From a virus (lineage: Duplodnaviria; Heunggongvirae; Uroviricota; Caudoviricetes), in IMG/VR virus record IMGVR_UViG_651324052_000001, positions 1 through 32,602 of that record: 32,602 nucleotides of DNA, one strand, 5' to 3'. The notes beneath the pieces were generated by a model. The model saw only the letters and a program-made list of their open reading frames with translations. It ran no database searches and had not been told where the DNA came from. Below, in pieces: positions 1-32,602 of the stretch (positions are counted from its first letter, which is position 1; each line of letters opens with the position of its first letter). Made by a program: the position numbers and the translations under genes.

Positions 1-379
1 CACAAAAGGTAGTGGAAATGTTGGGACTCCGGGATGCGTTTCTTTCATGTTTGATGAGAAAGGACAGATCATTATTGCAAAAGAAGATTGCGATATGGAT
101 TCTGACGAACTGATGATGCTTGCTTTAGATGCAGGAGCAGAAGATTTTGTGGAAGAGGAAGACAGCTACGAAGTGTTGACAGTGCCGGAAGATTTCAGTG
201 AAGTTCGTCTGAAATTGGAAGAAGCAGGAATTCCGATGGCAAATGCAGAGGTGACCATGATCCCACAGACATGGGTAGAGTTGACAGATGAACAGGATCT
301 GAAAAATATTCAGAAGACATTGGATCTGCTTGAGGAAGATGATGATGTCCAGGAAGTGTACCACAACTGGGATGAATAA
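1..379 (+). CDS. yebC: YebC/PmpR family protein, 3' part (gene starts before the window)
   Basis: The frame is open from nt 2 (TKGSGNVGTPGCVSFMFDEKG...). It contains ALDAGAED and ends LLEEDDDVQEVYHNWDE, both typical of the YebC family. GC content is visibly higher than in the downstream phage DNA. Confidence 0.93.
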   Translation, partial: TKGSGNVGTPGCVSFMFDEKGQIIIAKEDCDMDSDELMMLALDAGAEDFVEEEDSYEVLTVPEDFSEVRLKLEEAGIPMANAEVTMIPQTWVELTDEQDLKNIQKTLDLLEEDDDVQEVYHNWDE

Positions 380-16500: not shown

Positions 16501-16890
16501 ATCAGTTGTACCGCAATTGACTTTCCATCCGTCTAGCGGAATTTGTGCATATTCACTTTGAATGGATTGAGCAGTAATAGACTTGTATTCTTTTGTACCT
16601 GTCCCATGAGTTACAGGGCTGTCCATAATAAACCATCCAATTCCAGTTACATATAATTTCATGAATTTGGATAACCAGTTATATGCGTTTGATTCTACAA
16701 ATTGTCCAGTATAAGTTTCAATATATTGATTTACATCGAAGGATATTGTTGATACGTCATTACATTTTCCCTCAAAGTTTCCGGAAGAATAATCGATACC
16801 GTTTAGAGCACACAAAATAATTCTGCTAGGCGTGGCAAGATAAACAATGGTTTGTTCATGATTGCCATATGTATCATATTTAAATTGCAA
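13585..16890 (-). CDS. Phage tail spike / Tal-like minor structural protein
   Basis: 1101 aa with a TTG start and RBS GAAAGGAG. It is the second gene after TMP. Motifs include ITIGFRN...IFTKIRVSG and a C-terminal VRIQIG beta-helix-like region. Confidence 0.75.
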   Translation of the reverse strand: MQFKYDTYGNHEQTIVYLATPSRIILCALNGIDYSSGNFEGKCNDVSTISFDVNQYIETYTGQFVESNAYNWLSKFMKLYVTGIGWFIMDSPVTHGTGTKEYKSITAQSIQSEYAQIPLDGWKVNCGTTDSLEMLVDGNVEEIEGVEFAKEQIKFYNEKKPQLSLVNILVEKVPGWKVGYIDNKPKEYKTIENGEVVTKSVLLKDEVGKFDLDYSDVYSFITQEFEKFFNCIVEFDFENLIVNFYRVENFGKNTNITIGFRNVENSNEITIDEENIFTKIRVSGANDLGIEQCNGGSNYLFYLDRFWLNNKFLSDTTIKKYKRWESFCVQARIDYTALSKEWNIQQDKISELYIRIPTGDCDPDKWDKLSDTELLTLKKDYEAQKLGYEKLYVDEEGNFDINALNASPDANIYHQIVDTILLNIQIEIDNRKLPTSEGEKDFIEEYLTNWKYYGINELEIKLKSYQDQAKLLAKSHYDLTWERYQELSKQDPEKYPALTEDGFKDKHALYEKNAYQMDENNKDSCAAALKERREQAKKEEETQKEISKKRTALSQKMALETWSDESLGSFSKEELAELYHITKQTPYTNENIFTTNQDSLTDIVTTQSELCRVALEELQTYSIPQTIYSTSLDNLISASGTELHAETLDYGSFIWLGLRDDYYVKLRVMSISYNPFLFDNNFSITFSNMIKSTSGRDDFLQIIGSSSNIGGESSRHNISGNLQLSDDNIYEILNKLLQSSAFNNKVQSIVNGSGGSIIGGTGGNYITPGTLEAEMIKCIDIHAENGFFQYLQAELISVGKIVAESGDFKELLAKVGNIDNLLAGNVSAELGHIIKLTADNVIIDEAVIRQLIASQITVSMLKAGTINADKFNIESEDGGMSIVGNTMQFKDQNGVVRIQIGRDTNNNFTFCLYDETGKGVLIDSTGIKDSAISDGLIKNDMIANNTISKEKLSFQAVEKDADGKIHVSDVVVNGQGINASFTTIENSMSDMQTQIDGIKTSTPYTMNIFSSNGTIFRPGMINTTLIPSLYLGQSDVTDMYDETHFVWTRQSSDSDGDHYWNAAHTNGIKNLHITSDDVLGGASFTCSFFNDNGKLITEARF

Positions 16891-17964
16891 TTAAATCAAT
16901 GCTCCTTTCCGTGGTTCAAGATATGTAATATCCAATGTCATATTCCCATAAACTCGAAATGTGTTATGGCCATGCAGCAATCGAATCCAGTAGATGTTAT
17001 CTTCATGCTCAATTCCAACCCTCTCAAATACGACAGGTCTATTTAATTCATCGTATAAGGATAAATTCCCACAATCTAATTTCAGATCTAAATCACGTTG
17101 TACTTGACAGTAGAAGAAACCACCTTGAAAAATATAATATTGACCATTTTCTATATAATAAGCACCATATTTATTCTTAACTCCAAAAGCATCTGTTAAG
17201 TAGAACAAGATAGCAGTGTCGTTGCATATGGACATAACCTGTTTATCTTTTCCGTATACATAATCTAAGGAACATCTATTTGTTTTTGCATAATTTTCAA
17301 TTTTTGTTTTTAATAATTCTAGGGTTAATTTATTAGAAGATTGAAGTGTTATGTTGTTTGTTTCGAGAATTTTACTATCAGATAAATTATGAAAATAGAT
17401 TTGTTCTGTTGCGGCAGGACGAATATTAATAACCGGATAAACATATCCATATTTTTCACTACTTGTATTTTCTAACATAAAGTTCTTGCTTCTCGTAATA
17501 GTTTGTTGATCGTTTTTTTCAACATAAGAAAAAGGAGAGTTGCACTTAAACTCGCATCTAAGACCATAACATATTCCCCAGTTTTCGTAAGGTGTAATAG
17601 AAGAGAAGTAGCCTTTTAATTTTACAGTTTCATTCCCTTGTGTAGTGACTGTAATCCATGAATTTTTGTTTGAAGAACTGAGCCATGAAACTATGCTTTC
17701 ATATTCTTCCGGTGTGAACTCTAATTCTTCCTGCGAAGTATTTATTTCATAATTTTTTGTAATATGGATTTCAAATGTAAGTGTTTCTGTATATTTCATG
17801 CCGAACCCGGTAGCTTCATTTCGAAATGGATTAAGTTCACTTACTTCCATTTCCCTCTTGATAGAAGATGGGAGAGAAGTGTCATCATCAAAATTTACAG
17901 ATGATAAATTCTGTTTTAATAACGAATTATCGTCATAAGAAAAATCTTTACATACCAAAATCAT
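16891..17964 (-). CDS. Distal tail protein (Dit)-like
   Basis: First structural gene after TMP. It has a CEFKCNSPF motif and a C-terminal WIRLLHGHNTF motif. The RBS GAGGTG favours ATG 17964. Confidence 0.7.
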   Translation of the reverse strand: MILVCKDFSYDDNSLLKQNLSSVNFDDDTSLPSSIKREMEVSELNPFRNEATGFGMKYTETLTFEIHITKNYEINTSQEELEFTPEEYESIVSWLSSSNKNSWITVTTQGNETVKLKGYFSSITPYENWGICYGLRCEFKCNSPFSYVEKNDQQTITRSKNFMLENTSSEKYGYVYPVINIRPAATEQIYFHNLSDSKILETNNITLQSSNKLTLELLKTKIENYAKTNRCSLDYVYGKDKQVMSICNDTAILFYLTDAFGVKNKYGAYYIENGQYYIFQGGFFYCQVQRDLDLKLDCGNLSLYDELNRPVVFERVGIEHEDNIYWIRLLHGHNTFRVYGNMTLDITYLEPRKGALI

Positions 17965-18006
17965 TTTTTCTTTCACCTCAACTTTCTTTTGGTTTTTGGA
18001 TATAAT

Positions 18007-18035
18007 AAAAGAGCCAAGGCACATGACCTCGACTC
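18007..18035 (-). terminator. Intrinsic terminator upstream of distal tail gene
   Basis: Minus strand reads GAGTCGAGG-TCATGTG-CCTTGGCTC-TTTTATT, a 9-bp stem with G-U pairs that form only on this strand. Confidence 0.7.
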
Positions 18036-18062
18036 TATTAATCTTATATTTTTAAATACAAA

Positions 18063-18091
18063 TTGACAAAATGTAGTTTAATTGATATATT
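18063..18091 (+). promoter_or_regulatory. Sigma-A type promoter for the small toxin-like gene
   Basis: TTGACA-17 bp-TATATT with an extended -10 TG. Confidence 0.8.
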
Positions 18092-18201
18092 ATGAATTGG
18101 CATTATCTAATACGGTAAGGACGGTTGTCTTCCACCAGAGAGCACAAGCTCTGTTCTTATAGAAACCTGTTTAGGAATCTTATGGAAAGGAGGACTTTTA
18201 C

Positions 18202-18814: not shown

Positions 18815-21800
18815 TTACAGTTTCTTATGCATTCCTAGTCTATGTGCTTCCTGTGTAAAATATTTTGTTACCTCTTGAATAACCTTTTTAATGCCTGGAT
18901 ATGTATCTTTATCAATACTTCCTTCAACATTAATTAAGTTATCATAATGCTGATTGATGGTAGTTCCCTTTCCGGTATCTTCTCTGACATTTCTTCGGAG
19001 AGATGCTTCCATAATCGCATTTTTATTTTCAGCAAGACTAAATAGGTTGTCTGTTAGCTTCTTAGGGACAATAGCATCGCCATATTCAAATGTTGCATAA
19101 TTGTCACTTCCACGCTTGATTCTAAGTTCTTTACCAACTTCATCAATTCTTGCAAGTTCAATTGCATTTGTGATTTTCTTCGTTCCTTTAGCATAACCAC
19201 TAATCTGATCTTGTCTTACCCACCCAAGATCACTGTAAAATCCAGGAGTTGATTGAGTACCTAGATGGATAGGGTATGGGCTATTAGGGTTCATATATGT
19301 AATATATAATTCCTCGCCAAGATGTTGATTTCCAACTGGGTTTGTTCCATACGAGTCGTTAAAATACATTCCACTATTGAATCGTACTTTGTCCCCTACT
19401 CGTGGAACGCCGTCTCCACCGCTAGAATTATTTTGCTGAGGTGGTTGTGGTTTAGGTGGTTCTGGTTTCTTTGTGACCGTAACTCCGACTGAAACGCTTA
19501 ATCCACTTCCATCAGTAGTAGATGCCGTTATCTGACATGCTCCTGGTTTGATAGCTCGAATTGTTCCCCCACTTACAGTAGCAACTCGTGTATTAGAAGA
19601 TTTCCAAGAAAGCTTCTTGTTTTTAGCATCAGTAGGTCGTATACTCGCAGTAATAGAAGTGGATTGACCTTCTTCTAATGACACTGATGTTTTATTAAGT
19701 TTCAATTCAGCAACAGGTCGATTGGATGTATTCGGAGCCTGTCCAATAATTCCTTCGATTCTATCATTGTTACTTTGTGCTGATCCGCTTTGAATAGCAC
19801 CGGTGTTTACGTTTGTAAAATCATTTGGTTTATAATTAGGGGCAGTAGTAATACTTCCATGTACTTGATTTTGTACGCCGCCGGCAGTACCCAAATTCCC
19901 AATGTTCGAATTAAAGTCACCACTCGGCTTAAAGCCTGTTCCGGCAATAATACTCTGAATTTTATCATAAGCTTGCTGATAATTATTAACAACATTTTCC
20001 AACATTTGAGAAATAACCTGCTCTTGTTTTTCAGCATTGTATGTGACTTCATTCAGAGTATCTTCAAGCTCTTTGTTTAGGTCTTCAGAAAGACCCTCAT
20101 ATCCGTCTTTTCTAACTTCATACTCACGGTCTTTCTGTGTTTGCTGTAATTGATCTTGAGCTTCTGCTAATTGAGCTTCTAATCTCTTTTTCTCTGCTTT
20201 TGCTGCTTCATTATTTACCGAATCTAAAGCAGCAATTTGTGCCTTTAATACATTAATATCTTTTGTCTGTTTCTTAAGATTACGAGAATAATCATCGTTC
20301 TTTTTCTTAATATCAAGCAGTTTTTCATATTTTTCAATGGATTTCTGAGCCATATCATTTTCAGCTTCTAATTGCTTACGATATAAGTCAACAATCTCAT
20401 TCTTGTAATCTTCAACAACACCTACAGAATCTCGGATAGAATCCAAGAATTCCTTTTGTTGTTCTTTATATTCACTTGTTGAAATGTTTCCGTTCTTTAA
20501 ATCTTCATCAAGTTTCTTTAATGCTTCATTATAATTTTTGATCTGCTGTTTTGCAGCATTCATGCCTTGAGAGATAAGTGCGAGATTAGTAATACCTTCA
20601 ATAGTTAATCCGCCGTTTTGACCAACAAATGCATCTGAATGAAGCATGCTTCTAAAATCATCAGTTTCTGTAATCAAATCTTTTAAGGCTTCTTGTCCTT
20701 CAAAGAAAGGATTCCATCTAACTTCCCAGATTTTATTTTTCAGTTCTTCAATGTTTTCGCTGGTACTGTAAATCTCATCATCAAGTTTTGCAATCTCATC
20801 AGCAATTTCTTGATACCTCTTAGACCCAACATCATACAATCCTTGCTCTTTTAAGAGTTCTTGACGTTTATTGAAATTAGCCTGAATAAGAGCATTAGCA
20901 TTGTCAAGTTGCTTCTTAAGATCTGCCTCACTAACCTTATCACCTTTTGCTTCGGTTAAGCTTGTGCCGTTTTCTAACCTCTGAGCTGTACGGTCAAGCA
21001 TATCAATAGTATGCTGTAACCGTGTAAGTTTCAGATTTCGGAACTCGTCTTCAAGTTCTACTAATCCAATTTGTGCATCAACGGCAGCTTCTTTCAGCTC
21101 ATTAAGTTTTGCCTGTGCTTCATACCACTCTTTAGATCCCTCAGACATGTATCCTTGAGACATAAGTTTTGATATTTCTGCTTCATAGTCCTTAATTTGC
21201 TGTTGTGTATTTTCTGCTAATTCTTGTTGATTTTTGATAGACTCTTTAATAGAAGCTTCTTGTTCCTTCCCATAAGCAGAATGACCAAGTTCTTCCCAAA
21301 GTTCACGTTGTTTTTCAAGATAGCCGTTTGCTGTATCCTGTTGATTATTCAGCATTTCCCAATATTCTTCAACGTTATCAAGAGCCTTTTGAACTAATTC
21401 GTCCTGCTTTTCAAGAAGTTCATCGTACTGAGAATTACAATCTTCTAATTTATCATAGTAATCTTGATAAATTTGAATTAACTTTTTGGTTTCTTCGTCA
21501 TAACCAGAAATATCAAATGAACCATTTTTAATCTGATTATAAATCGTAGGATCAAGTCCCATTTGAGATTCTAAACTTGTAAGATGCTCACGATATTTAT
21601 TAATAGCAGTGGAAGTATTAGAAAGATATTCTTGATTCTTTGCTAATGCTTCATACATCTTAATCTGCTTGTCTGGAAGTTTAGCAATACGTTCCATTTG
21701 ACTCATGAGATGGTCAAACTGACGTTCCATTGCCTTAAACACACGTTCAATCCAGTCAATCTGATCAGAGAGTGATTCTGATAATTTCTCAGCCGCTTCT

Positions 21801-24800
21801 GATGTATCTGTTGCTGCTTTTGAAAGATTTTCTGCGGCGTTGTTTACGGAAGAAGAGCCAGATGAACCTCCACCTGATAGATTGCCGTTGCCAGTATTTC
21901 CAGTCACCCAACTTCCAGAAGAGAATGCCGTTCCGTTAGATAGTGCATGTCCACGACCTCCGCCAGATGTGACCTTTCCATTTGCAAACAACTCAGCTGT
22001 TTGTTTGTGGTTGAAGACGATATCACCCTTCTTCAATGGGACAAACTGAGCGCCACCTTCAATTAAATGCCAACGTCCGTCTCTAACAATTAATTCGTTA
22101 CCAAGTTCATTTACAAGAGAAGTTTGATTTTTAGAAACACCCCAGTCACCACTTGCTTTTGCGTTACCAGAGTAGTGATACAAAGTAGTAGTTCCATTTG
22201 CGTTGGCGGTTCCATTTGCCACAGCTCCTTCTTCCTTGACATTGTTGGTAACAGAAGTAATGTATACAGTTTTACTTTGTACAGAAGAGATGGCAGAAGC
22301 AAGAGCTGATACATCGCCTGTTCCAGATGTAGTGGCAGATACAGTTACAGATTTACTTTGTACAGAATCAATAGCTGCTTTTAATGCTTTTACCAAATCC
22401 GTTCCAGTCACATTTGCTTTTGCATCAACAGTTTTTCCTTCAAGTGTTCCTAACGAAGCCTTTAATGCTCCGATGAGTTCCAATCCAGTTACATTTGCCA
22501 TTACGGATACAGATTTTGCTTCATTGCTCAATCCATTTATGGATGACTTGATACCATCAAGTTCGTCTTTTCCAGTCACACTTACAGAAACAGCTAATTC
22601 TTTATCATCAAGAGAAGACAGCATGGTTTCTAAAGCAGTAATGTCGTCTTTCCCTGCAACATTCACTGTAATAGTCACATCTTTGTCTTGTATGTCTTCA
22701 AGATGTAGGTCTTCTTTTTCAAGTTCAACAGGTATTTTAATCTCATTAGACATTAATTGAGAGGCAATCTCATCAGTACTTAATCCTTCAATATTTAATT
22801 CTGCCTTAATCTCTGGTGATATATTTTCAAGCTCGGCTTTTGCAGTTTCCACCATACCTAATGCTTCATTAAGTTTGCTTGTGTCGAAATTTGGAGTAGA
22901 AGCAATTATATCAGCATTAGTAACAGCGTCATAATAATTCTGAAAAAGTTGTATTGCATTTTGTAATTCCGCACTTGCATTACTTGTGTCAACATTTAAA
23001 ATAGCAGGCTCATTTAGTTCGGCGCGTTTCTGAATTAAAGTAGAAAGAACTTGCTGTGCAGATTCCAATTGAGAAGCATCACAGTTAATTGAACCATCAG
23101 AGTTATATAAAGAATTAATATATTCTTTTGTTTTTTCAATCTCATTATATATAGAAGAATCTGTTTTGGCATTTACGTCAATATCAACTTTCCCACCAGT
23201 AGCTTCTCTAATTGCGTCTGCTGCTAGAGTAGCTTTAGCAATAGCTTCGTCTAAATTACTTGTTTCTACTGACACAGAGGAAGGGTTTTCCAGAAGTTTC
23301 TTACGTTCTATGGCTTCTTCGAGTAATGTATTCAGATTTTCAACTTCTGCACTATCAACACCAAATTTAGTTTCCGATTCATCACGAGCCTTCGTTAATT
23401 CTGCGATTCGAGCGTCTAATCCATTAGCATCTAATTTAGACGTATCTACATCTAAATCAATTTCCGGAAAATCAGATCCAGCTTCTTTTAACTGTTGAAG
23501 ATTGGTTTTTGCTTTTTCAGCTTGAGCAGATAAGTCAGCCATTTTCTGAGCATAATTAGAATCGCCACTCGTATCACCAACACGAATTGTGTCATCGTAT
23601 TCAGTCATAGCCCTGTACAATGATTGAATAGCCTCTTTACTAATTCCTAATCTTTTTGCAATTTCTTCGTCTGCTCCAGTTTGAAATTCAAGAACACCAT
23701 TTTCTAACTCTTTTACCCATCCTAATCCCTCATTATCGGAAAGAGTTTTCATGTCTGTAACAAAGTTATCAAGACCTTGCTTAGTTCCGGTAAAGTATTT
23801 ATCAATTACAGGAAGAGATGCTTCGTATGCGGCGACAACTTCTTTCATAGAAGCAGTAGCTAAATCTTGATTAGAATAGAATTGCGATACAGCTCTAAAT
23901 TCCTCAGTGTTATATCGACCTTCTTTATAAAGCTCTTGTCCTCGTTCGCGCATTGTTTCAGAAACTGTGCGGAACATATCGCCTTCTTCGCCATTAGATT
24001 GTGCGCTCATCCATTTTTGATAAGCAGAAGTAGCACCATCATAGGCAGCCGATAATTGATTTACTGCTTCAAGTTGACGACTTAATCCGTCTATAACAAG
24101 TTGAGAATTATTATATTCAGAAGAACCTTTATCATAATTATTCTGTTCTGCATATGCTTTATTCAACTGCTCTTGAAGTGATTGTTGTTTTTCTGCAAAC
24201 TTCCCTTTTGTTATAGCTTCTTGTTGTGCTTGCAATTGGCGTAATGCTTCTCTGTTCAAATGAACACCGTTTGCGGTTTTCTCAAATAAAGTTGCAGGAT
24301 CATAACCTTCCAAATCTTCATATGCGGATGCTATTGCACCAATATCGCCTTCGAGTTCTCCTGTTTCTTCATTGAGAGAAACACCTAGCCCCTTGCCATT
24401 ATAACTATTTGCTAATACGGCATTTAAAGATTCTACAGAATTAATTTGTGATACAACATCTTTCTGGAAATCTGAAAAGCTTTCTTCAAGTTTAGTTAGA
24501 CCAGCGTCTTGACTGGCAAGTGCTGAAATTTCTTCTCTTAGAGTTTCGACACTAACACCTGCTTCATTACAAGCAACAACTAATTCAGGAAATCCCTTGG
24601 TGATTTCATCAACAGATAATTTGTCTCCACTTCTAAAAGCATCTACTAATTTCTGTTGTGCTTGAGCAAAATCATTATTTTCCCAAATTTTAGATAATGC
24701 TTTAGCTGCTTTGGCTTGAGGATTTTCTCTGGTGTAATCATCAATCACTTTTGTAATGTCATTGAATTTCTTTAGTTCTTTTGAAGACAACCCTTCTTTT

Positions 24801-25876
24801 GCAACACCAGTTGTTTCATCCATGAAATTCTTCCTAAGTTCTTGAAGTGATTTCATATTTTCAGAAACAGCATCCTCATACATTTTCATATCTGACTTAA
24901 GAGTATCTATTTCTCCGTCAATTTCAGATTTTCTTTTCTTGTCTTTTTTGGAAGTTCCTAAACCGTCACGTTCATTTAAAAGTTCTTCTCTTGTGTCTTT
25001 TAATTCATTTAATGCTTTGACTTCATTTTGAGTAGCTGTTAGAATATCCGTCTTTTCATAACCAGTATTTTCTACCCCTTGTGCAGCATTTGCGCCAGCA
25101 GCCATTCGATCAATCCAGTTATCAGACTCTAATAGTTCCTGTTGAGATGACTTTGTTGTTAAATCGTAAGTTTCTCTTTTATTTAGAGAATCCATTGCAG
25201 AACCAACAGCTTCTTTAGCTTCTTTATCTGCAATTTCTTTCTTTAAATCTCTCTGACGTTCTAGTTCAGCATTTTGTAATTTTAGTTGTGAAAGTTCAGA
25301 TTGCTCTACGAGATTTAAAGTCCCTTTGGATTCGAGTTCTGAAATTCTCGTAGATGTTGTTTCGATTTCAGAGTTTAAGGATTTTACTTCTGCCATTGTA
25401 GAAGCATAAGCTGATTGTGCTTCTTTTGCTTCTTCAACAGATCTCTTCATTTCAGTAGCTTTTAGATAAGTTAACCATGCTGCACCACCGACAACAGCTG
25501 CGCCGCCGATATACGGAATGGCTTTCTTAAATACCGTTAGTAATCCCTTTCCTGCATTCTTGAAGCCTTCCATAGCTTTTTGTCCGGTAGACATTCCATC
25601 TCCAAGACCGTCTAATGTTTTCTTTAATTCGCTTACACCTTCGGCTGCATCGCCAGCGCCTTCAGTAATATCTGCAACTGTATCTGCCCAACCAGTCATG
25701 TTTAATGCATCTTTTGCAAAATCCTTCGAAACACCGGAATGTTTAAGAATTTTCCCAACTTCTTCTAAATCTTTCGCATCGTCTAACAAATTTACCATTT
25801 TAGCAAATTTATTATTATAATCTAGTCCATTAAAATCTTTTAATAGTTCAGAGTATTTCCCTATCTCTTTTAATGA
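18815..25876 (-). CDS. Tail tape measure protein, 3' exon (C-terminal ~2350 aa, with Big_2-like and SH3-like domains near the C-terminus)
   Basis: Very long helical Ala/Lys/Glu-rich ORF upstream of Dit/Tal. It has LVNELGNELI...GDIVFNHKQT and GYAKGT motifs and an Ig-like LNKTSVSL...WKSSNTRVATV region. There is no RBS before ATG 25798, and the frame stays open upstream (SLKEIGKYSELLKDFNGLDYNNKFAK) to a TAG at 25904-25906. The 5' boundary is inferred. Confidence 0.85.
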   Translation of the reverse strand, partial: SLKEIGKYSELLKDFNGLDYNNKFAKMVNLLDDAKDLEEVGKILKHSGVSKDFAKDALNMTGWADTVADITEGAGDAAEGVSELKKTLDGLGDGMSTGQKAMEGFKNAGKGLLTVFKKAIPYIGGAAVVGGAAWLTYLKATEMKRSVEEAKEAQSAYASTMAEVKSLNSEIETTSTRISELESKGTLNLVEQSELSQLKLQNAELERQRDLKKEIADKEAKEAVGSAMDSLNKRETYDLTTKSSQQELLESDNWIDRMAAGANAAQGVENTGYEKTDILTATQNEVKALNELKDTREELLNERDGLGTSKKDKKRKSEIDGEIDTLKSDMKMYEDAVSENMKSLQELRKNFMDETTGVAKEGLSSKELKKFNDITKVIDDYTRENPQAKAAKALSKIWENNDFAQAQQKLVDAFRSGDKLSVDEITKGFPELVVACNEAGVSVETLREEISALASQDAGLTKLEESFSDFQKDVVSQINSVESLNAVLANSYNGKGLGVSLNEETGELEGDIGAIASAYEDLEGYDPATLFEKTANGVHLNREALRQLQAQQEAITKGKFAEKQQSLQEQLNKAYAEQNNYDKGSSEYNNSQLVIDGLSRQLEAVNQLSAAYDGATSAYQKWMSAQSNGEEGDMFRTVSETMRERGQELYKEGRYNTEEFRAVSQFYSNQDLATASMKEVVAAYEASLPVIDKYFTGTKQGLDNFVTDMKTLSDNEGLGWVKELENGVLEFQTGADEEIAKRLGISKEAIQSLYRAMTEYDDTIRVGDTSGDSNYAQKMADLSAQAEKAKTNLQQLKEAGSDFPEIDLDVDTSKLDANGLDARIAELTKARDESETKFGVDSAEVENLNTLLEEAIERKKLLENPSSVSVETSNLDEAIAKATLAADAIREATGGKVDIDVNAKTDSSIYNEIEKTKEYINSLYNSDGSINCDASQLESAQQVLSTLIQKRAELNEPAILNVDTSNASAELQNAIQLFQNYYDAVTNADIIASTPNFDTSKLNEALGMVETAKAELENISPEIKAELNIEGLSTDEIASQLMSNEIKIPVELEKEDLHLEDIQDKDVTITVNVAGKDDITALETMLSSLDDKELAVSVSVTGKDELDGIKSSINGLSNEAKSVSVMANVTGLELIGALKASLGTLEGKTVDAKANVTGTDLVKALKAAIDSVQSKSVTVSATTSGTGDVSALASAISSVQSKTVYITSVTNNVKEEGAVANGTANANGTTTLYHYSGNAKASGDWGVSKNQTSLVNELGNELIVRDGRWHLIEGGAQFVPLKKGDIVFNHKQTAELFANGKVTSGGGRGHALSNGTAFSSGSWVTGNTGNGNLSGGGSSGSSSVNNAAENLSKAATDTSEAAEKLSESLSDQIDWIERVFKAMERQFDHLMSQMERIAKLPDKQIKMYEALAKNQEYLSNTSTAINKYREHLTSLESQMGLDPTIYNQIKNGSFDISGYDEETKKLIQIYQDYYDKLEDCNSQYDELLEKQDELVQKALDNVEEYWEMLNNQQDTANGYLEKQRELWEELGHSAYGKEQEASIKESIKNQQELAENTQQQIKDYEAEISKLMSQGYMSEGSKEWYEAQAKLNELKEAAVDAQIGLVELEDEFRNLKLTRLQHTIDMLDRTAQRLENGTSLTEAKGDKVSEADLKKQLDNANALIQANFNKRQELLKEQGLYDVGSKRYQEIADEIAKLDDEIYSTSENIEELKNKIWEVRWNPFFEGQEALKDLITETDDFRSMLHSDAFVGQNGGLTIEGITNLALISQGMNAAKQQIKNYNEALKKLDEDLKNGNISTSEYKEQQKEFLDSIRDSVGVVEDYKNEIVDLYRKQLEAENDMAQKSIEKYEKLLDIKKKNDDYSRNLKKQTKDINVLKAQIAALDSVNNEAAKAEKKRLEAQLAEAQDQLQQTQKDREYEVRKDGYEGLSEDLNKELEDTLNEVTYNAEKQEQVISQMLENVVNNYQQAYDKIQSIIAGTGFKPSGDFNSNIGNLGTAGGVQNQVHGSITTAPNYKPNDFTNVNTGAIQSGSAQSNNDRIEGIIGQAPNTSNRPVAELKLNKTSVSLEEGQSTSITASIRPTDAKNKKLSWKSSNTRVATVSGGTIRAIKPGACQITASTTDGSGLSVSVGVTVTKKPEPPKPQPPQQNNSSGGDGVPRVGDKVRFNSGMYFNDSYGTNPVGNQHLGEELYITYMNPNSPYPIHLGTQSTPGFYSDLGWVRQDQISGYAKGTKKITNAIELARIDEVGKELRIKRGSDNYATFEYGDAIVPKKLTDNLFSLAENKNAIMEASLRRNVREDTGKGTTINQHYDNLINVEGSIDKDTYPGIKKVIQEVTKYFTQEAHRLGMHKKL

Positions 25877-25881
25877 CTGTG

Positions 25882-25890
25882 TGGTATAAT
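25882..25890 (+). promoter_or_regulatory. Extended -10 promoter for the Zn-ribbon gene
   Basis: TG-G-TATAAT lies ~48 bp upstream of ATG 25938, with an AGGAGG RBS in between. Confidence 0.6.
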
Positions 25891-25937
25891 ATAAAAAATG
25901 TTTCTATCATTTAATATATATTTTAGGAGGGATTTTA

Positions 25938-26420
25938 ATGGCATTATTAATTTGTTCTGAATGCAAAAAAGTTGTATCTGATAAAGCGGGAATATGTCCC
26001 CACTGTGGATGTCCAATAACAATAAAGGATGACTTGAATAGGCAATACACAAAAGTTAATGGCGTTGAATATGATGTAACAGAAATTGTTAAAATAATTC
26101 TCAATGCAGAGACATACAAAGAGTGGACTCCAGCCTCTGATATGATCAGAAATATGATGGACATTTCTCCGATAAAACTTATTAATCCAATACGTGAACT
26201 TGGAAGAGCACCGGAAGAAATTAATTGCGAAACATTATCCGACTTCTCAAAAAGACAACGAGCTATTCAGGCATCCAAGATTCACTGTCCAAACTGTAGG
26301 TCAACAGATGTAAAACGAATATCCGCAACTGAGAGAGCAGCGTCTGTGATTGGTTTTGGTCTACTTTCAAAGAAAATCAACAAAACATATAAGTGTAATA
26401 AATGTAAGTATACTTGGTAA
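25938..26420 (+). CDS. Double zinc-ribbon domain protein
   Basis: N-terminal CSEC...CPHCG and C-terminal CPNC...CNKC motifs; RBS AGGAGG. Confidence 0.8.
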   Translation: MALLICSECKKVVSDKAGICPHCGCPITIKDDLNRQYTKVNGVEYDVTEIVKIILNAETYKEWTPASDMIRNMMDISPIKLINPIRELGRAPEEINCETLSDFSKRQRAIQASKIHCPNCRSTDVKRISATERAASVIGFGLLSKKINKTYKCNKCKYTW

Positions 26421-26442
26421 AATAACAGTAAATTTGCTTTCC

Positions 26443-26471
26443 TTGACATTGTGTAATTGTAATGTTACAGT
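26443..26471 (+). promoter_or_regulatory. Putative sigma-A promoter for the YHYH/Ig gene
   Basis: TTGACA-17 bp-TACAGT with a TG extension. Confidence 0.5.
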
Positions 26472-26531
26472 TATAGAAGTGTGAGCGGTTTCTATAAGAG
26501 ATATAAACTACTTATAAGAGAGGGAAAACAA

Positions 26532-27914
26532 ATGAAAAAAAGAAAATGTATTATTTGTGCAGTAATATTATCTATGTTACTGCCTATTTCTGTGCACGCA
26601 CATCCAGGCAGAACAGATTCTAGTGGTGGTCATCATGACTATAAAAATCAAAGTGGACTAGGAAGCTATCATTATCATCATGGTATGGGTGCACATTTAC
26701 ATCCGGGAGGAGTTTGTCCTTATGGTGGTGGCGCGGTTCCATCATACACACCGCCAGTTCGTCCGAAACCAACTATTACTGTAAACAATCCACCCACCCA
26801 GCTTTATGTTGGCGAAAGTTCTGGATTAAACATCACTTTAAGCAATGTATCACAAAATACTCTTAGTGTCACATCAAGCAATCCACATGTCGTAAGAGTA
26901 AATCCAGATAATACATTAACTGCTGTAGGATCAGGAGATACTACAGTTACGGTAAGTGCATCTGGCGCAGATAATCAAGCATTTGTAGTAACAGTTAACA
27001 CAATCCCAGTAGAATCAATAGTTATTAAAAATTCAACAAACAGACTTCAATTAAATAGTACTATAGTATTTGAAACAGAAATATTACCCAGCAACGCCAC
27101 TGATAAGACAGTTACATGGAAATCAGAAAATGAAGAAATAGCTGTTATAACTGATAAAGGATCTGTAGTAGGTAAGAATCCTGGCAAAACCAAAATTACC
27201 TGCGAAGCAGTTAGTGGCGTTAAAACGGAAATAGAATTAGAGATATATGAAATATTTCCTGAATCAATAGAACTTGAAGCAAACAAAATTGAATTAGAAT
27301 GTTTAGACACATATGATTTAGATGTCAAAATTATGCCAGAAACAGCAAATAATAAAAATTATAGCATAGAAAGCGAGAACAATGATGTCGCTAAAATAGA
27401 AGATAAAAAGATTAAAGCTGTATCAGACGGCATAACTAACATAATAGTTAAAACAGACAATGGTATTGAACGCAAAGTACCTATTAAAGTTTATCATGTG
27501 CCAACAGATAACATACATATAGATGACTCAAAAACAAATTATTTTATGGATTTATTCTCTATTAAGCTATTAGATAAAAGAGAAAGTATTAGCCTGGAAT
27601 CTGTAGTTTATCCAAGTTATGCCACTTTTAAAAATCCAGAGTGGAAGAGTAGTGATGAAAATATTATTGATATTAGAAATAATAAACCATATATTGAAAG
27701 TACGGGTTGTGTAACTCTTACATCTACGACAATCGATAAAGTTTCTGATAGTATAACAATTTTCATCATAGATCGAGATATTGCTTTGTTGATAATTTTT
27801 GGAGTAACACTGATCCTTCTGTTTGTCAATGGATGGATTATTTATAAATACAAAAATAATATTATCGCCATAAAAAATAAATTAATGTCCAAAATTAAAC
27901 ATACAGATGTCTAA
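26532..27914 (+). CDS. Surface protein: signal peptide, YHYH-like domain, tandem Big_2 Ig-like repeats, C-terminal TM anchor
   Basis: MKKRK...VHA signal peptide; HPGRTDSSGGHH...YHYHHG; repeats such as PSNATDKTVTWKSEN; hydrophobic C-terminal helix followed by basic residues. The RBS GAGGG favours start 26532. Confidence 0.8.
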   Translation: MKKRKCIICAVILSMLLPISVHAHPGRTDSSGGHHDYKNQSGLGSYHYHHGMGAHLHPGGVCPYGGGAVPSYTPPVRPKPTITVNNPPTQLYVGESSGLNITLSNVSQNTLSVTSSNPHVVRVNPDNTLTAVGSGDTTVTVSASGADNQAFVVTVNTIPVESIVIKNSTNRLQLNSTIVFETEILPSNATDKTVTWKSENEEIAVITDKGSVVGKNPGKTKITCEAVSGVKTEIELEIYEIFPESIELEANKIELECLDTYDLDVKIMPETANNKNYSIESENNDVAKIEDKKIKAVSDGITNIIVKTDNGIERKVPIKVYHVPTDNIHIDDSKTNYFMDLFSIKLLDKRESISLESVVYPSYATFKNPEWKSSDENIIDIRNNKPYIESTGCVTLTSTTIDKVSDSITIFIIDRDIALLIIFGVTLILLFVNGWIIYKYKNNIIAIKNKLMSKIKHTDV

Positions 27915-28001
27915 ACTGTAAATATAAATGGTAGTGGAAGTGTAATGTCTGTAAGAGATATTTTTAGGATTGCGGAAAAGTAATTAGAAATAGAGATGTT
28001 T

Positions 28002-28265
28002 CTATAGCATATCTGTTTCTAATTCGCGTATTCTGCGCTTTAATTCATCACACGATTTGTGCTGTTTCCCAAATTTATATTTGTATGAATAATTGGTTTT
28101 TTGATGACCAAAATTATCTTCGATTTGCTTATTAAAGTCGTTTTGAATTTTATTTAATTCATGCAAATTATTTTTGTTTAATGAATATAAGAATATAACC
28201 ATTCTACATTTTGTAAAATGTAAGAGTGCACGAATTCTGTAATAGAATAACTGAAAAAAATTCAA
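28002..28265 (-). CDS. Hypothetical protein, divergent partner of HEXXH gene 1
   Basis: TTG start preceded by the RBS AAGGTGGTGA. Confidence 0.5.
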   Translation of the reverse strand: MNFFQLFYYRIRALLHFTKCRMVIFLYSLNKNNLHELNKIQNDFNKQIEDNFGHQKTNYSYKYKFGKQHKSCDELKRRIRELETDML

Positions 28266-28294
28266 TTTAATTCACCACCTTTGGAGGATAAATA

Positions 28295-29014
28295 ATGATT
28301 ACTGAAGAAATAAAACTTGAAACAAAATTACGTTGGTTGGAATATTGTAAAGAAATTAAAAATATCCCGCCAATACAAGAGATAGAGCTTCTTGATAAAA
28401 ATGATTCTTCACACGCAAGATTTAAATCAATAGATTTGTATAATCAAAAATATATCTTATATGTTCAAAAGGAGATATATGAATATACTGATGTTTCGAC
28501 AAGATCTATATTATTCCATGAATTTACTCATCTTGCGGACGCAATAAAATATAAAGATAAAAAATATGAAGTGTTCCTTAATATAATGTCTTCTTATTCA
28601 GAATATCATGCATCATATATTGAAATGCTTCAAATTCTAAAATGTTGTGACAGTAAATTAATAAACAAAGAATCAGAAGCTATTTACAGAGCTGGCTGTC
28701 TTACCTTAGAATCCCTTATGTCTCAATCATACACAGCAGCGATAAAATGTTTTGAAAAAATTGATGAGTCTTTTAATGGAGTACATGAGTTTTATTACTA
28801 TTTAGGATATAGAAAGGCTTTACAAAGATATAGTTTGGAATTTAATTTTAATTTATTAGATTTTAATTCATTGTATATGGTTTATATTAAAAATATTTTT
28901 GATTTTATTGAGTCAAATGAAATTACAAAATTAGCAGATGAACACTCAAAATTATTACACTCTATTGATAAGGAGATAGAATCAAATAAAATTTTGAATC
29001 ATTTTAATATTTGA
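28295..29014 (+). CDS. Putative Zn metallopeptidase (HEXXH), paralog 1
   Basis: RSILFHEFTH motif plus downstream SEYHASYIEM (candidate third-ligand Glu); RBS GGAGG. Confidence 0.7.
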   Translation: MITEEIKLETKLRWLEYCKEIKNIPPIQEIELLDKNDSSHARFKSIDLYNQKYILYVQKEIYEYTDVSTRSILFHEFTHLADAIKYKDKKYEVFLNIMSSYSEYHASYIEMLQILKCCDSKLINKESEAIYRAGCLTLESLMSQSYTAAIKCFEKIDESFNGVHEFYYYLGYRKALQRYSLEFNFNLLDFNSLYMVYIKNIFDFIESNEITKLADEHSKLLHSIDKEIESNKILNHFNI

Positions 29015-29329
29015 AAGTTGCTGTTTTTTTATGTGGCTACTTGGTTCTGCCAGGCAAAGCTGCAGACATCAATGACAACGACAAAGGTAAAGAGGAGAAG
29101 AACGGAGTCTATCTTATAATTCCACATCGCCCAAAACTTTTTCTTTAAACTTTTTTATGATTGAATAACATTCAGATTGGCTTACATCAGTACCGCAATA
29201 TAGCGTGTTGATTAGACACTTTACAATATAATTTTCTTTTTCTTCACGCTGCAAATAATTATCAACGGAATTATTGTTAAACATATTAACTGTTTGATTC
29301 TGAAAGGGAACTAATTTAAATATGAAAAA

Positions 29330-29641
29330 TTATTTGTCAATTAATCGTTTTAATAATTTTTCATGTTCTCGACAAATAATATCAAGATCAAATTCGGGCG
29401 AAATATCATCTGGGAGTTTTTCTACGGTTTTGTCTGGATTGATTTGATATACATCACCGTTCCAAATAAATTGCTTTTCAGATATGTACAGGCAATTAGA
29501 TTCAAAAGAGTAGTTTTTAGGGTATGTTAAAAAATTCATCGATTTTTTTAACTCTTGCTGCATTTTTATATCGTCAATTTGTAATTTGATTTTATATAAA
29601 TCCATAATTATTTGTTTTTCTTCACTTGTTAATTTAATAAT
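29330..29641 (-). CDS. Hypothetical protein, divergent partner of HEXXH gene 2 (ATT start at 29641 or ATG at 29605)
   Basis: The RBS AAGGTGGTGA is followed by an in-frame ATT at the same spacing as the TTG of the first module. Confidence 0.5.
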   Translation of the reverse strand: MIKLTSEEKQIIMDLYKIKLQIDDIKMQQELKKSMNFLTYPKNYSFESNCLYISEKQFIWNGDVYQINPDKTVEKLPDDISPEFDLDIICREHEKLLKRLIDK

Positions 29642-29668
29642 TTTAATTCACCACCTTAAGGAGATTTT

Positions 29669-30430
29669 ATGAAAGTATTAGATATTTTTTCATTGTATTT
29701 AGAATATCAAAAGGAATATCCTAGAAATGATTATCCAGAATTATCGGTAGACAACCTTGTGTATGTTCATGATGTTGATTTTTGGTTTCAATTTAATTCG
29801 TCTAAATTATATGATGATCAATACGAATTACAAGTCAATATGGAAGCGTTTGCATTGAATGATACTTATTTAAGAAGTATCTTGTATCATGAGTTTACGC
29901 ATATATATGATTCTCTTACGTTTAAAAATAAACCAATGGATGAGTATGAAAAAAATATGTCACACTACTCAGAAATACATGCATCTTACATTGAAATGAG
30001 AAAAAGAATAAGGGAAATATCTCATTCTTTATATATACAGGATGAAAAAAATGAAATTCTAATCCATATTTATCTACAAAAAGAGTATTCAACCGTTAAA
30101 ACAACATGGTCAAATTATATAGAATATAATCCGGAAACCATTACAGATAAAATGAAACGGCTCTGTTATTTTGTTGGACATTATAAATATCTAAAAGATC
30201 ATTATAATATACCTGAATTTAAAATTGTATCTCCTTATGCTGAAGAAATATACGGTATTATAAATGAATACTCTAACGGAATGTATAATCTAAACAAATA
30301 CTTTAATAAAATTATTCAAAAGTCAAAAGATTACAAAAACAGTCAATACCTTGATAAATTGCAATCAATTTTAAATGAAGATATAATAAACCAAGATGCA
30401 TTATTGGGATTTTTCACGAACAAGATATGA
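29669..30430 (+). CDS. Putative Zn metallopeptidase (HEXXH), paralog 2
   Basis: RSILYHEFTH and SEIHASYIEM motifs; RBS AAGGAG. Confidence 0.7.
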   Translation: MKVLDIFSLYLEYQKEYPRNDYPELSVDNLVYVHDVDFWFQFNSSKLYDDQYELQVNMEAFALNDTYLRSILYHEFTHIYDSLTFKNKPMDEYEKNMSHYSEIHASYIEMRKRIREISHSLYIQDEKNEILIHIYLQKEYSTVKTTWSNYIEYNPETITDKMKRLCYFVGHYKYLKDHYNIPEFKIVSPYAEEIYGIINEYSNGMYNLNKYFNKIIQKSKDYKNSQYLDKLQSILNEDIINQDALLGFFTNKI

Positions 30431-30578
30431 TCAGCAAATGTGGATCAACACTAATTATAACTGACGACAAACCGTGTTGTTATACATCGCTTGCCTTTCA
30501 AAAAATCATTCCTTTCATAATAGATGATTATTTCAGGCACAAAAATAGAGCAGTAGTAGTTACTGCTCTTGATTAAAA

Positions 30579-30959
30579 TTAACCATTTTGTTCCAAATCT
30601 AATAATCTTCGATTTATTTTTTTCATTAAAAAATCGTATTTTTGTGTATCGCATTGATAATTTTCCTGTGATTCACCATTATCTAATAGATAAGAATACT
30701 CCTCTATTAAAACCGAATTACTTTTGAATGTTTTAGGTCTTTCGTTAGATGCAATTATATGAGCCACTGAATCTGCAAGCAAGTCATCAAATACTTTTAT
30801 ATTTTTTCTATATTTTTTTTCTATAAGTTTTCGACGTTCTTCAAAGTCCTTTTCAATCATTAATTCTTCTTCAGATGTAATTTCAATAATTTGAATATTT
30901 TTTCGAAATGACAAGTCAACCATTTCACATTTTATTTTTTTCATTAATTTATCCCTCAT
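30579..30959 (-). CDS. Hypothetical protein, coupled to the upstream 2TM protein
   Basis: Its start overlaps the stop of the upstream gene. An alternative start at ATG 30944 follows GAGGG. Confidence 0.55.
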   Translation of the reverse strand: MRDKLMKKIKCEMVDLSFRKNIQIIEITSEEELMIEKDFEERRKLIEKKYRKNIKVFDDLLADSVAHIIASNERPKTFKSNSVLIEEYSYLLDNGESQENYQCDTQKYDFLMKKINRRLLDLEQNG

Positions 30960-31888
30960 TATTCATTTGGATTTACATAAAGTCCTTTATTAATTTTGTC
31001 TGCCAAAACAATCAAATTAGAATATGGAACAATGTTTTCTTCTGCAAATTTACGTAATTTTATACGATCAGTGTTTATAATATAATTATACTTGGTAATC
31101 ACTTGAAAGATTCCAAGCATTTTATTACTAGTGCAATACACTGGAATAGCAATGTATTGTGTATATTTCGATAAATCAGTATCTATACTAACTTTATTGA
31201 AGATTCGCTGGATCTCTTCATTATTAATAGCTATTTCAATGTCAGATAGATTGTCTTTAATTAAGTTAGCATAATGATACGAACTTTTTTCTAAAGGTTC
31301 TATATTTTTACACGATCGAGGGCGCGTCGATGAAGGATTGGAATGTGCTACCATATGTATCCATTTCTCCCTGTTTTCATCTTCCCAATAATATATAAAA
31401 CCAACGGATATTTTGCTGGTATCATCAATTCCTGTATAAGTTATAATCATATCCCTACAATAACTACAGATATCATCAAAAATTTTATATCTATCCCAAC
31501 ATTTTTTCGGAGCTTTACCATTTTGAATCACTTCATTGGCAAAAGAGTTGATATTTAAAGCCCATTTCTCTGAAATGGAAGAAAACATGCCAACAGAGTA
31601 AGAACATGTATTTTTATATCTATCTAATTCATTCAAAATTAAATTTAATTGGTTGTTTTTTTGATTCATTTCATATATAATTTCGCTTGCCTTACTCTCT
31701 TGATTTCCATAAAATAATACTGCAATAATTAAACAAAACATTAAAAATACAGAAACAGTACAAAATACTGCTTTCAAAACATTATTATTTACAAAAGAAA
31801 TAAAAATACCAATGCAGGAAATAATAGTTGGTATACTTATTAATATTGTATTCTTAAACCAAGGTTTTTGGTAGAATTTATCTTCCAT
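30959..31888 (-). CDS. Membrane protein: two N-terminal TM helices, coiled coil, GAF-like domain
   Basis: Two hydrophobic segments in the first 60 aa. The C-terminal YIAIPV...LGIFQV resembles the terminal strands of a GAF domain. Confidence 0.6.
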   Translation of the reverse strand: MEDKFYQKPWFKNTILISIPTIISCIGIFISFVNNNVLKAVFCTVSVFLMFCLIIAVLFYGNQESKASEIIYEMNQKNNQLNLILNELDRYKNTCSYSVGMFSSISEKWALNINSFANEVIQNGKAPKKCWDRYKIFDDICSYCRDMIITYTGIDDTSKISVGFIYYWEDENREKWIHMVAHSNPSSTRPRSCKNIEPLEKSSYHYANLIKDNLSDIEIAINNEEIQRIFNKVSIDTDLSKYTQYIAIPVYCTSNKMLGIFQVITKYNYIINTDRIKLRKFAEENIVPYSNLIVLADKINKGLYVNPNE

Positions 31889-31982
31889 GCAATATATCCC
31901 CCATATATTTATTTATATAGTATACACCATATTTCGACAAATTACTATCAGAACATTAGTTTGATTTGTCGAATAAATAGGA

Positions 31983-32602
31983 GATAGTAAACATTTTTCT
32001 CATATCACTGGAACCAAACAGCATTAGAGATTTGCTGCTAGAAAATAATCCGAAGATTATATTGGTTACGGCACTCCAGATTTTGCCGGAAGTTTTAAAA
32101 GCATATATCTATGCCACACATGGTACTGACAGTCTATGTTAAGTCAGATTGCCAGTAACGTATTACTAAAACTTTTCTAAATCGCAATACGCACTATGCC
32201 TTAAAAGAAGAATAGCATTTATGGCAGTTATTCTCTCCGAGGATGGGTATGTCTCTGGGGATACTATCTGTTAATGACCTTCATTATATACGCCAAAAGA
32301 ATTAACTCAGATATTGTCCTGCTCGTTGTCCTTTATATTCTTACTTAGATGTCTTAACATTTTCATATTAATATTCATATAAGAACAAATCATTTATTTG
32401 GGTTTCCCTACCTACTGTTATGGGTATGATTTGCAAAATAAGATTTCAAGCATTTACTCCTCTATGGATCAAAACCATAATAAATATATGGAACTCACCA
32501 TGCTCCGCCACTTGATATTACAATGCCATAATATTGTAAATCTTATGTCGGCTAGACTCATATATAATATAGGAATATTTTACTTATTTTATTATATATG
32601 TA
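31983..32602 (-). ncRNA. Group I intron-like ribozyme core (atypical P7)
   Basis: Minus-strand motifs: P AAAUGCUUGAAA (32455-32444), Q GGACAACGAGCAGGA (32331-32317), R CCAGAGACAUAC (32258-32247) and S AAGGCAUAGUGC (32202-32191). Helices: P4 UGCUUG/CGAGCA, P3 GAGGA/UCCUC, P6 GGA/UCC, P6a UAUCUG/CAGAUA, P8 AGAAUA/UAUUCU and P9 CGUAUUGC/GUAAUACG. There is also a cUUCGg hairpin at 32045-32060. Confidence 0.75.

Follow-up and report, generated by a model that had tools for sequence, protein, structure and literature searches.

A ribozyme-like RNA with variable multi-gene cargo in the tape-measure gene of a human-gut phage, probably a 6.7-kb group I-type intron

Group I introns of bacteria and their phages are small and carry at most one homing endonuclease gene, and IStrons add a transposon. 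Prophages of the Bacillus cereus group carry the group I introns TMP-IVS1, 2, 3a and 3b in the gene for the tape-measure protein (TMP) (Tourasse and Kolsto 2008, PMC2504315). In IStrons (CdISt1, BcISt1 and others) an insertion sequence lies downstream of P9.2 of an IA2 ribozyme, and these elements insert after TTGAT-type sites, end in TCAG and measure at most 2.6 kb (Tourasse et al. 2014, PMC4227781). Group I introns of organelles that hold several open reading frames (ORFs) reach a total of up to ~20 kb (cited in PMC4227781). A literature search returned no report of multi-gene cargo in a group I intron of a phage. Here we describe an element in the TMP gene of a tailed phage, encoded within and just beyond a stretch of 32,602 nucleotides (the window) that forms bases 1-32602 of a linear 161,307-bp IMG/VR virus record (IMGVR_UViG_651324052_000001, labelled G000). 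A reading of the window (the original prediction) had proposed that an intron-like element of at least 6.7 kb splits this gene; the element delimited below spans 6,746 nucleotides (nt).

The exact junction of the interrupted tape-measure gene

The C-terminal part of the TMP is encoded on the minus strand by an ORF of 2327 aa (18815..25798). Its first ATG, at 25798, is preceded by aataaatttgctaaaATG, without a Shine-Dalgarno (SD) sequence, unlike nearby cargo genes, at which GGAGG-type sites are present. The reading frame stays open for 35 codons above this ATG, up to 25903, and reading of these bases bore out the original prediction on both points. An N-terminal TMP exon with a PhageMin_Tail domain had been expected beyond position 32602, and a 647-aa ORF ending at 32623, 21 bases past the window end, was found there. 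Its product, P0001, matched PhageMin_Tail (Pfam, E 1.7e-21) and the TMP family phrog_4211 (E 1.6e-65) at profile positions 514-940 of 2625; because of these two matches and their position we take it to be the N-terminal piece of the TMP. The interrupted gene is laid out as follows.

Genome 32623..34563 (32620..34563 with the stop codon), outside the window, minus strand: exon 1 of the TMP gene (P0001, 647 aa)
25877..32622, minus strand: the intervening element, in which intron position n has the window coordinate 32623 - n
18815..25876, minus strand: exon 2 of the TMP gene, 2353 codons plus stop, beginning TCA TTA AAA (SLK), without a start codon or SD sequence of its own at its start

The last sense codon of exon 1 is GAT (D), ending at 32623, and is followed directly by TAA. 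Exon 1 products of relatives share ...FFKNLD and diverge straight afterwards, with a stop in G000, KPEITR and then a stop in L009, and 15 other residues in L007. Amino-acid conservation of the second part begins exactly at SLKEIGK (TCA at 25876) in G000, L003-L005, L009 and L014. In L004 and L005 the second part lacks ATG, GTG and TTG over 106 conserved codons from SLK, and the first ten exon 2 codons of G000 and L004 differ at five bases, three of the differences being synonymous. The intact TMPs P0002 and P0025, from Lachnospiraceae-type phages, carry FVKNFKELAEIG aligned across FFKNLD and SLKEIG. The 2327-aa ORF is thus not a complete gene, as had been proposed, since the intact proteins run through the junction and its counterparts in L004 and L005 are startless.

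GAT joined to TCA is in frame and would unite 647 and 2,353 codons to encode a 3,000-residue protein. We placed the bounds of the element at 25877 and 32622 because the break is shared by the relatives, conservation resumes at SLK, intact TMPs read through and the join is in frame. The exact TMP junction is FFKNLD followed by SLKEIGK. SLKEIGK therefore opens exon 2 and does not end the junction peptide, as originally expected. At the nucleotide level the predicted ligated junction is ...AACUUAGAU joined to UCAUUAAAAG, and the predicted spliced sequence reads ...AAAAACTTAGAT (exon 1 end) directly followed by TCATTAAAAGAG... (exon 2 start).

A structured RNA tied to both splice sites

On the minus strand, 31889..32602 is free of ORFs and contains a structured RNA backed by covariation, in keeping with the non-coding region that the original prediction had placed on the TMP strand. 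The first ~555 nt of the element consist of strongly conserved blocks with variable hairpins between them. RNAalifold identified 16 compensatory pairs in three sequences. We built a group I-style structure by hand and counted its pairs on an alignment (A3), using as controls the same partners slid by 1-3 columns and 500 shuffles. The structure holds 106 proposed pairs in 19 helices. Cells were paired in 96.8% of cases, compared to 33-46% in the slid controls, and two-sided changes were seen in 31 pairs, compared to 1-4; none of the 500 shuffles reached the observed values. In this proposed structure the helices follow the canonical order P3-P4-P5-P6-P7-P3'-P8-P7'-P9, and the P, Q and R blocks resemble the group I consensus. 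The parts of the RNA, all on the minus strand, are listed below by intron nt.

32069..32602 (intron nt 21-554; nt 1-20 lie past the window end): the putative ribozyme, with P1 guide, P2, P2.1, P3-P9, P9.1, P9.2 and a further hairpin
Exon positions -6..-1 with intron nt 66-71: P1
84-90 with 99-105: P2
122-125 with 156-159: P2.1
161-165 (GAGGA) with 380-384 (UCCUC): P3
GUAAAU: J3/4
172-176 (GCUUG) with 298-302 (CGAGC): P4
After P4 and before P6/P6a in the order of helices: P5, P5a and P5b
304-315 with 353-364: P6/P6a
365-379, CCAGAGACAUACCCA: R-like block
371-375 with 427-430: P7, four pairs and a bulged A
388-394 with 409-415: P8
After P8 and before P9, P9.1 and P9.2, AAGGCAUAGUGC: S-like block
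535-539 (CGGCA) with 550-554 (UGCCG): the further hairpin

Four lineages of this RNA (the G000 type, L009, L014 and the L017/L040 type) share 69-78% identity with one another. P3, which with P7 would form the group I pseudoknot, is invariant in the alignment, and P4, P5, P5a, P6a, P8, P9, P9.1 and P9.2 each include pairs changed on both sides or on one side. A fifth lineage, L007, is very divergent and keeps the architecture with different letters, with compensated P4 (UCGUC/GACGG, 5/5 pairs changed), P7 (GAGCA/UGUUC) and P8 (CAGUAUAU/AUAUGCUG). The P2 loop (UAUGGC) and the P8 loop (GCCAUA) are able to pair, and in L007 they can still do so over 5 bp (AUGGC/GCCAU). Only 4 nt separate P7 from P3', which leaves no room for P7.1 or P7.2; the extra hairpins are P2.1 and P9.1 to P9.3.

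Several other assignments were tried and rejected. The S-like UAGAUAUAUGCU was ruled out as the 3' strand of P7, as covariation places it in the local hairpin P9.2. Long-range helices CGGAG/CUUCCG and UGCU/GGCA were dropped for the covarying local hairpin CGGCA/UGCCG, and a candidate helix UUACUGG/CCAGUGA conflicts with the covariation-supported P9.1. A group II intron was ruled out by the lack of a GUGYG start, a domain V and a reverse transcriptase.

Covariation supports the core, as the original prediction required, and extends to P1, P10 and a P9.0-like helix, which link the RNA to both splice sites. We tabulated these three pairings and the terminal G of the intron over nine loci. The elements involved, again on the minus strand, are the following.

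32552..32561 (intron nt 62-71): internal guide AUGA-GUCUAG, with the P10 strand at 32561-32558 and the P1 strand at 32557-32552
32114..32120 (intron nt 503-509): UGUGUGG, 5' strand of the P9.0-like helix, between P9.1 and P9.2
25877..25884: 3' splice site, with the terminal G at 25877 after CCACACA (25884-25878), the 3' strand of the P9.0-like helix

In P1, exon UUAGAU pairs with guide GUCUAG and leaves a U.G pair at the cut; in L014 the exon reads UUAGGU and the guide GCCUAG, a compensatory change from A-U to G-C. The four bases directly 5' of the P1 guide pair with the start of exon 2 to form P10, as AUGA/UCAU in G000, GUGG/UCAC in L009, GUGA/UCAU in L014 and GUGG/CUGU in L040, with compensatory changes in L009 and L040. 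In L007, P10 consists of six pairs (AAAUCG/CGAUUU), the letters being wholly different and the pairing kept. The terminal G closes the intron in 9/9 loci. The P9.0-like helix (UGUGUGG/CCACACA, 7 bp) joins the core to the bases before this G, 6.2 kb away. It forms 7/7 pairs in L040, where the first pair is changed from U-A to A-U, as also in L009 and L014. Six of the seven pairs form in L009 (read by eye); the helix is weak in L014 (4/7 pairs, or 7 with one bulge) and fails in L007. The 10-nt guide is unique within the ribozyme-like RNA (P = 0.023), and the docking 7-mer is unique within the whole intron (P = 0.018; 20,000 shuffles each). Guide and core co-evolve with both splice sites. The co-evolution of the core with a site 2.2-6.7 kb downstream is the strongest argument that the exons would be joined by RNA.

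A second intron segment, AUCUAAGU at ~32351-32344 (nt 272-279, minus strand), is complementary to the 8 bases that end exon 1 and gives A-U, not G.U, at the splice-site U. In L014 its U is changed to C alongside the exon A to G change, as in the guide, and the segment is absent from L007. It could serve as an alternative P1 or as a 5'-exon tether. One metagenome copy of the RNA (L042:435-949) lacks profile positions ~55-174, which include much of the P1 loop, the guide and P2, and may be degenerate or an assembly artefact.

Variable cargo between conserved ends

The span 25938-31888 is filled by eight ORFs, some on each strand, and searches of Pfam, PHROGs, NCBIfam and PADLOC matched none of them to a family of homing endonucleases, transposases or recombinases, in agreement with the original description of about eight unrelated genes without resemblance to a homing endonuclease. 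That description had put the cargo in a 3' peripheral loop. The genes lie instead in the 3' tail, between the P9 hairpins and the strand that precedes the terminal G, and no hairpin closes them into a loop. NCBIfam and PADLOC gave nothing useful for the cargo except a YHYH domain, and a tRNA scan returned no tRNA. Genes and signals inside the element are as follows.

25878..25890, plus strand: promoter-like extended -10 TGTGTGGTATAAT, the complement of the docking strand, facing into the cargo upstream of the zinc-ribbon gene
25938..26420, plus strand, antisense to the TMP gene: zinc-ribbon gene (double zinc ribbon, 160 aa)
26481..27914, plus strand: YHYH/Big_2 membrane-anchored protein, 477 aa
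28002-28265, minus strand: small divergent partner of HEFTH protein 1, 87 aa
28295-29014, plus strand: HEFTH protein 1, 239 aa, with an HExxH-type motif read in the translation
29330-29605, minus strand: small divergent partner of HEFTH protein 2, 91 aa
29669-30430, plus strand: HEFTH protein 2, 253 aa, a paralogue of HEFTH protein 1
30547..30569, minus strand (that of the TMP gene): intrinsic terminator-like hairpin, a 9-bp stem followed by T-rich ATTTTT
30579-30959, minus strand (that of the TMP gene): 126-aa protein
30959-31888, minus strand (that of the TMP gene): 309-aa protein with N-terminal membrane segments

Along the TMP strand of G000 the order is therefore the 309-aa and 126-aa proteins, the terminator, the HEFTH modules, the YHYH/Big_2 protein and the zinc ribbon. 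The TGTGTGGTATAAT site was read directly from the sequence and is missed by a consensus scan that demands a -35 hexamer. The stretch 28002-30430 is a tandem duplicate, holding twice a module of a HEFTH protein and its small divergent partner. The HEFTH proteins, their partners, the 126-aa protein and the 309-aa protein had no family match in the four libraries named above.

Of the protein genes in the cargo, only the zinc-ribbon gene is retained next to the 3' splice site in all relatives, always antisense, L008 with its different RNA included. Fold, Atlas and family searches gave no function for it: its AlphaFold model (predicted local distance difference test, pLDDT, 73) had no informative PDB match, and the Atlas matches were phage zinc-ribbon hypotheticals. 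Tandem paralogues of this gene occur in L003 (three, 16495-18149) and L004 (two, 15959-17104).

The same TMP site is occupied in 7/7 IMG/VR relatives (L003-L009). The RNA with its exon 1 flank was also present in further IMG/VR pattern matches and in 14 gut-metagenome loci, the latter added by a metagenome scan with the R-block that yielded no new lineage; none of 50,697 GenBank phages matched the RNA by blastn. The introns measure 2,220 nt in L009, 3,198 in L014, 3,915 in L007, 4,346 in L040, 4,714 in L005, 4,812 in L006, 5,159 in L004, 5,832 in L003 and 6,746 in G000. The stretches common to L003-L006 are the ribozyme-like RNA with a continuation of sequence conservation as far as 31995, ~80 nt at the terminator, and the 3' end with the zinc-ribbon gene. 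The terminator stretch is 94-97% conserved in L003-L007 despite differing flanks. L007 joins the conservation near the RNA only from 32099 (32099-31995), and its ribozyme-like RNA and 3' end are divergent. Cargo of the relatives includes a GmrSD-like protein, a LytTR response regulator, DUF3800, DUF2513 and DUF6338 proteins and extra zinc-ribbon paralogues, and a Pfam search of 19 of their cargo ORFs detected no transposase or recombinase. The cargo thus varies between conserved ends, and the original expectation of a conserved RNA with variable cargo in related phages is confirmed, the introns spanning 2.2-6.7 kb. G000 holds one copy of the element, and all copies elsewhere sit at the same TMP site.

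In the more distant L008 (48% TMP identity) a different RNA follows exon 1 at 12275-12800, with R- and S-like motifs recognised by eye (GUUCAGAGGCUGG ... AGAUAUACAGUCC). Downstream lie GmrSD-like and LytTR-regulator genes and the same antisense zinc-ribbon gene.

Other insertions interrupt the same gene. A standard group I intron (RF00028, 53 bits) lies in exon 2 of L004 (20973-21330, plus strand, corresponding to ~22004 of the window) and is absent from G000. Exon 1 is split by a ~1.2-kb insertion in L005 (11256-12460) and L009 (10635-11856), at a site equivalent to ~33313 of the G000 genome, beyond the window. The product of this insertion, a protein of 271 aa or 235 aa, contains a zf-FCS zinc finger, and the insertion is therefore probably another intron or homing element. 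In L007 (10668-13884) and L003 (10083-10751), too, parts of exon 1 are replaced or carry inserts, and the L007 segment encodes a 315-aa protein with DUF723, treble-clef finger and CapR domains (endonuclease-like). The TMP gene of this phage group appears to be riddled with mobile insertions.

Splicing, its rivals and the closest known systems

Taken together, these comparisons support the original interpretation at the level of sequence: a TMP gene of 3,000 codons is probably interrupted by a group I-type intron of 6,746 nt and spliced to give one TMP of 3,000 aa. In this scheme the first ~555 nt would fold into a ribozyme, and the guide would form six pairs with the end of exon 1, the one at the cut being U.G, and four with the beginning of exon 2. 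Over a distance of 6.2 kb, the 3' splice site would be drawn to the core by the 7-bp P9.0-like helix, and two transesterifications would join ...FFKNLD to SLKEIGK... in frame. The accessory genes between the ribozyme and the 3' docking strand would rely on signals of their own, namely the inward promoter, ribosome-binding sites and the terminator, and would be exchanged among related phages, with the conserved ends presumably serving as sites of recombination. We infer catalysis, splicing as a single piece and this route of cargo exchange.

A number of observations weigh against splicing by a group I-type intron. The original prediction anticipated a match to group I models, and RF00028 gave none at the gathering score or at E <= 10, whether run on the whole genome or on just the 660-nt RNA. 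In Rfam scans that covered the window, the flank, six relatives, the 660-nt RNA and the L008 intron, the standard intron of L004 was the one match; the L008 intron was missed by RF00028 as well. P7, with its four pairs and bulged A, is invariant in four lineages, and the guanosine-binding G-C pair is not evident in it: in the standard register the G opposes G or A, and the C that is able to pair with it covaries with P9 instead. An intron-less allele of a close relative was not found. Among the 8,000 best candidates scored from 5.8 billion clusters there was no intact TMP with more than 64% identity to the exon 1 region, and the 12 matches from an IMG/VR scan for the ligated junction all lie in unrelated genes and are due to chance. 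Transcription of half of the cargo runs opposite to that of the TMP gene. Finally, 2 kb downstream of the intron start the TMP strand carries a good intrinsic terminator, and a single 6.7-kb precursor therefore needs read-through or antitermination. Inefficient expression of the TMP may be enough, since few copies of this protein suffice per tail.

A wider proposal, which we put forward tentatively and regard as possible, is that the element is a platform for gene capture built on a ribozyme. A divergent group I-type RNA with a long docking helix, and perhaps with AUCUAAGU as a 5'-exon tether, would splice over many kb or between two transcripts. Any gene that comes to lie between the conserved ends would then ride harmlessly in an essential late gene, expressed from the inward promoter at the 3' end, and the hotspot would be defined by RNA catalysis and not by an integrase or transposase.

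The terminator could also mean that two transcripts are joined in trans, a reading that we consider unlikely. Exon 1 and the ribozyme would end at the terminator (30569-30547), and a second minus-strand transcript, started in the cargo, would bring the docking strand, the terminal G and exon 2, to be captured by the P9.0-like helix and P10. Conservation of this TMP-strand terminator in L003-L007 fits such a scheme, as do the small minus-strand ORFs downstream of it, on account of which minus-strand promoters may be presumed there. The docking helix of 7 bp is also far longer than the usual P9.0 of 2-3 bp. However, beyond P9.0 and P10 there is no extended complementarity between the 5' and 3' parts, only AT-rich chance matches, and the 2.2-kb intron of L009 has no comparable sense-strand terminator in its cargo. 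The natural trans-spliced group I introns known to us are split within the core and reassembled by long helices, which also counts against joining in trans.

It is quite improbable that the gene is permanently split, with proteins of 647 aa and ~2,330 aa that assemble and an RNA that is a relic or cleaves only at the 5' site. Split phage genes do exist, such as T4 gene 39/60 and Aeh1 nrdA, which is split by mobE; G000 has an ATG at 25798, and a proper stop codon ends exon 1. That ATG is nevertheless without an SD sequence, and L004 and L005 have no start over 106 conserved codons. Moreover, guide and core change in step with the first bases of exon 2 and with those that precede the terminal G, which speaks against two separate proteins because only a working 3' splice site would select for such covariation.

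Removal of the element from the DNA before late expression, by a transposon- or recombinase-driven process as in a decayed IStron or a skin-like element, is scarcely credible. The layout is IStron-like, and the insertion follows T-rich ...TTAGAT and ends ...ACAG, close to the TTGAT and TCAG of group A IStrons (PMC4227781), but no transposase or recombinase turned up in any version searched, each genome has a single copy that is always at the same site, and there is no direct repeat from which excision would restore the frame. Recombination of the DNA at the shared ACACAG was ruled out, as the TAA stop would remain. A dead gene in a defective phage, its interruption never repaired, is no more credible, as both exons are intact and conserved in many independent gut contigs and compensatory changes preserve the P1, P10 and P9.0 pairing.

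Group I-type splicing of the TMP gene, if it occurs, would make this the largest such intron of a bacterial virus that we have found reported, with a ribozyme that reaches a 3' splice site more than 6 kb away through an extended docking helix, and would establish a new type of accessory-gene hotspot. The logic of splicing out appears to shelter a changing multi-gene island in an essential virion gene of abundant human-gut phages. For annotation, such phages are now read as having two tape-measure genes and an island, and the Rfam group I model misses the RNA.

The Bacillus TMP introns resemble the present element in the class of host gene, in being inserted in frame, in having a stop codon close to or right at the beginning of the intron, in the P1 and P10 logic of the guide and in the general lack of a functional homing endonuclease (PMC2504315). 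They are of IA1 or IA2 type and hold at most one endonuclease gene (PMC2504315), whereas the present element measures 2.2-6.7 kb, with as many as eight genes on the two strands and a promoter and terminator of its own, and its cargo varies between close relatives. IStrons likewise have a 5' ribozyme with foreign DNA between the last P9 hairpins and the 3' splice site, a T-rich insertion site ending in AT and a 3' end ...CAG (PMC4227781), and they too occur in Firmicute hosts and their phages. Unlike IStrons, the present element has no tnpA or tnpB of IS200/IS605 or IS607 (Pfam, PHROGs and NCBIfam on G000; Pfam on the 19 cargo ORFs of relatives) and sits as a single copy at one fixed site, where IStrons have scattered copies. 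It reaches 6.7 kb, compared to 2.6 kb, with accessory genes in place of a transposase as cargo, and its RNA lacks P7.1 and P7.2 and is therefore not of class IA2.

As the present element would do, the large introns of organelles show that a group I intron can tolerate kilobases of inserted genes. Their inserts are mainly homing endonucleases, nested introns or repeats, while here the carrier is a bacterial virus and the inserts are accessory genes that can be swapped and are transcribed independently. In its conserved flanks and variable genes (GmrSD-like, LytTR, DUF3800 and DUF2513 in relatives) the element resembles the moron or defence hotspots of phages and satellites. It differs from them in lying inside an essential structural gene, a position that would be tolerable only because the RNA can be spliced.

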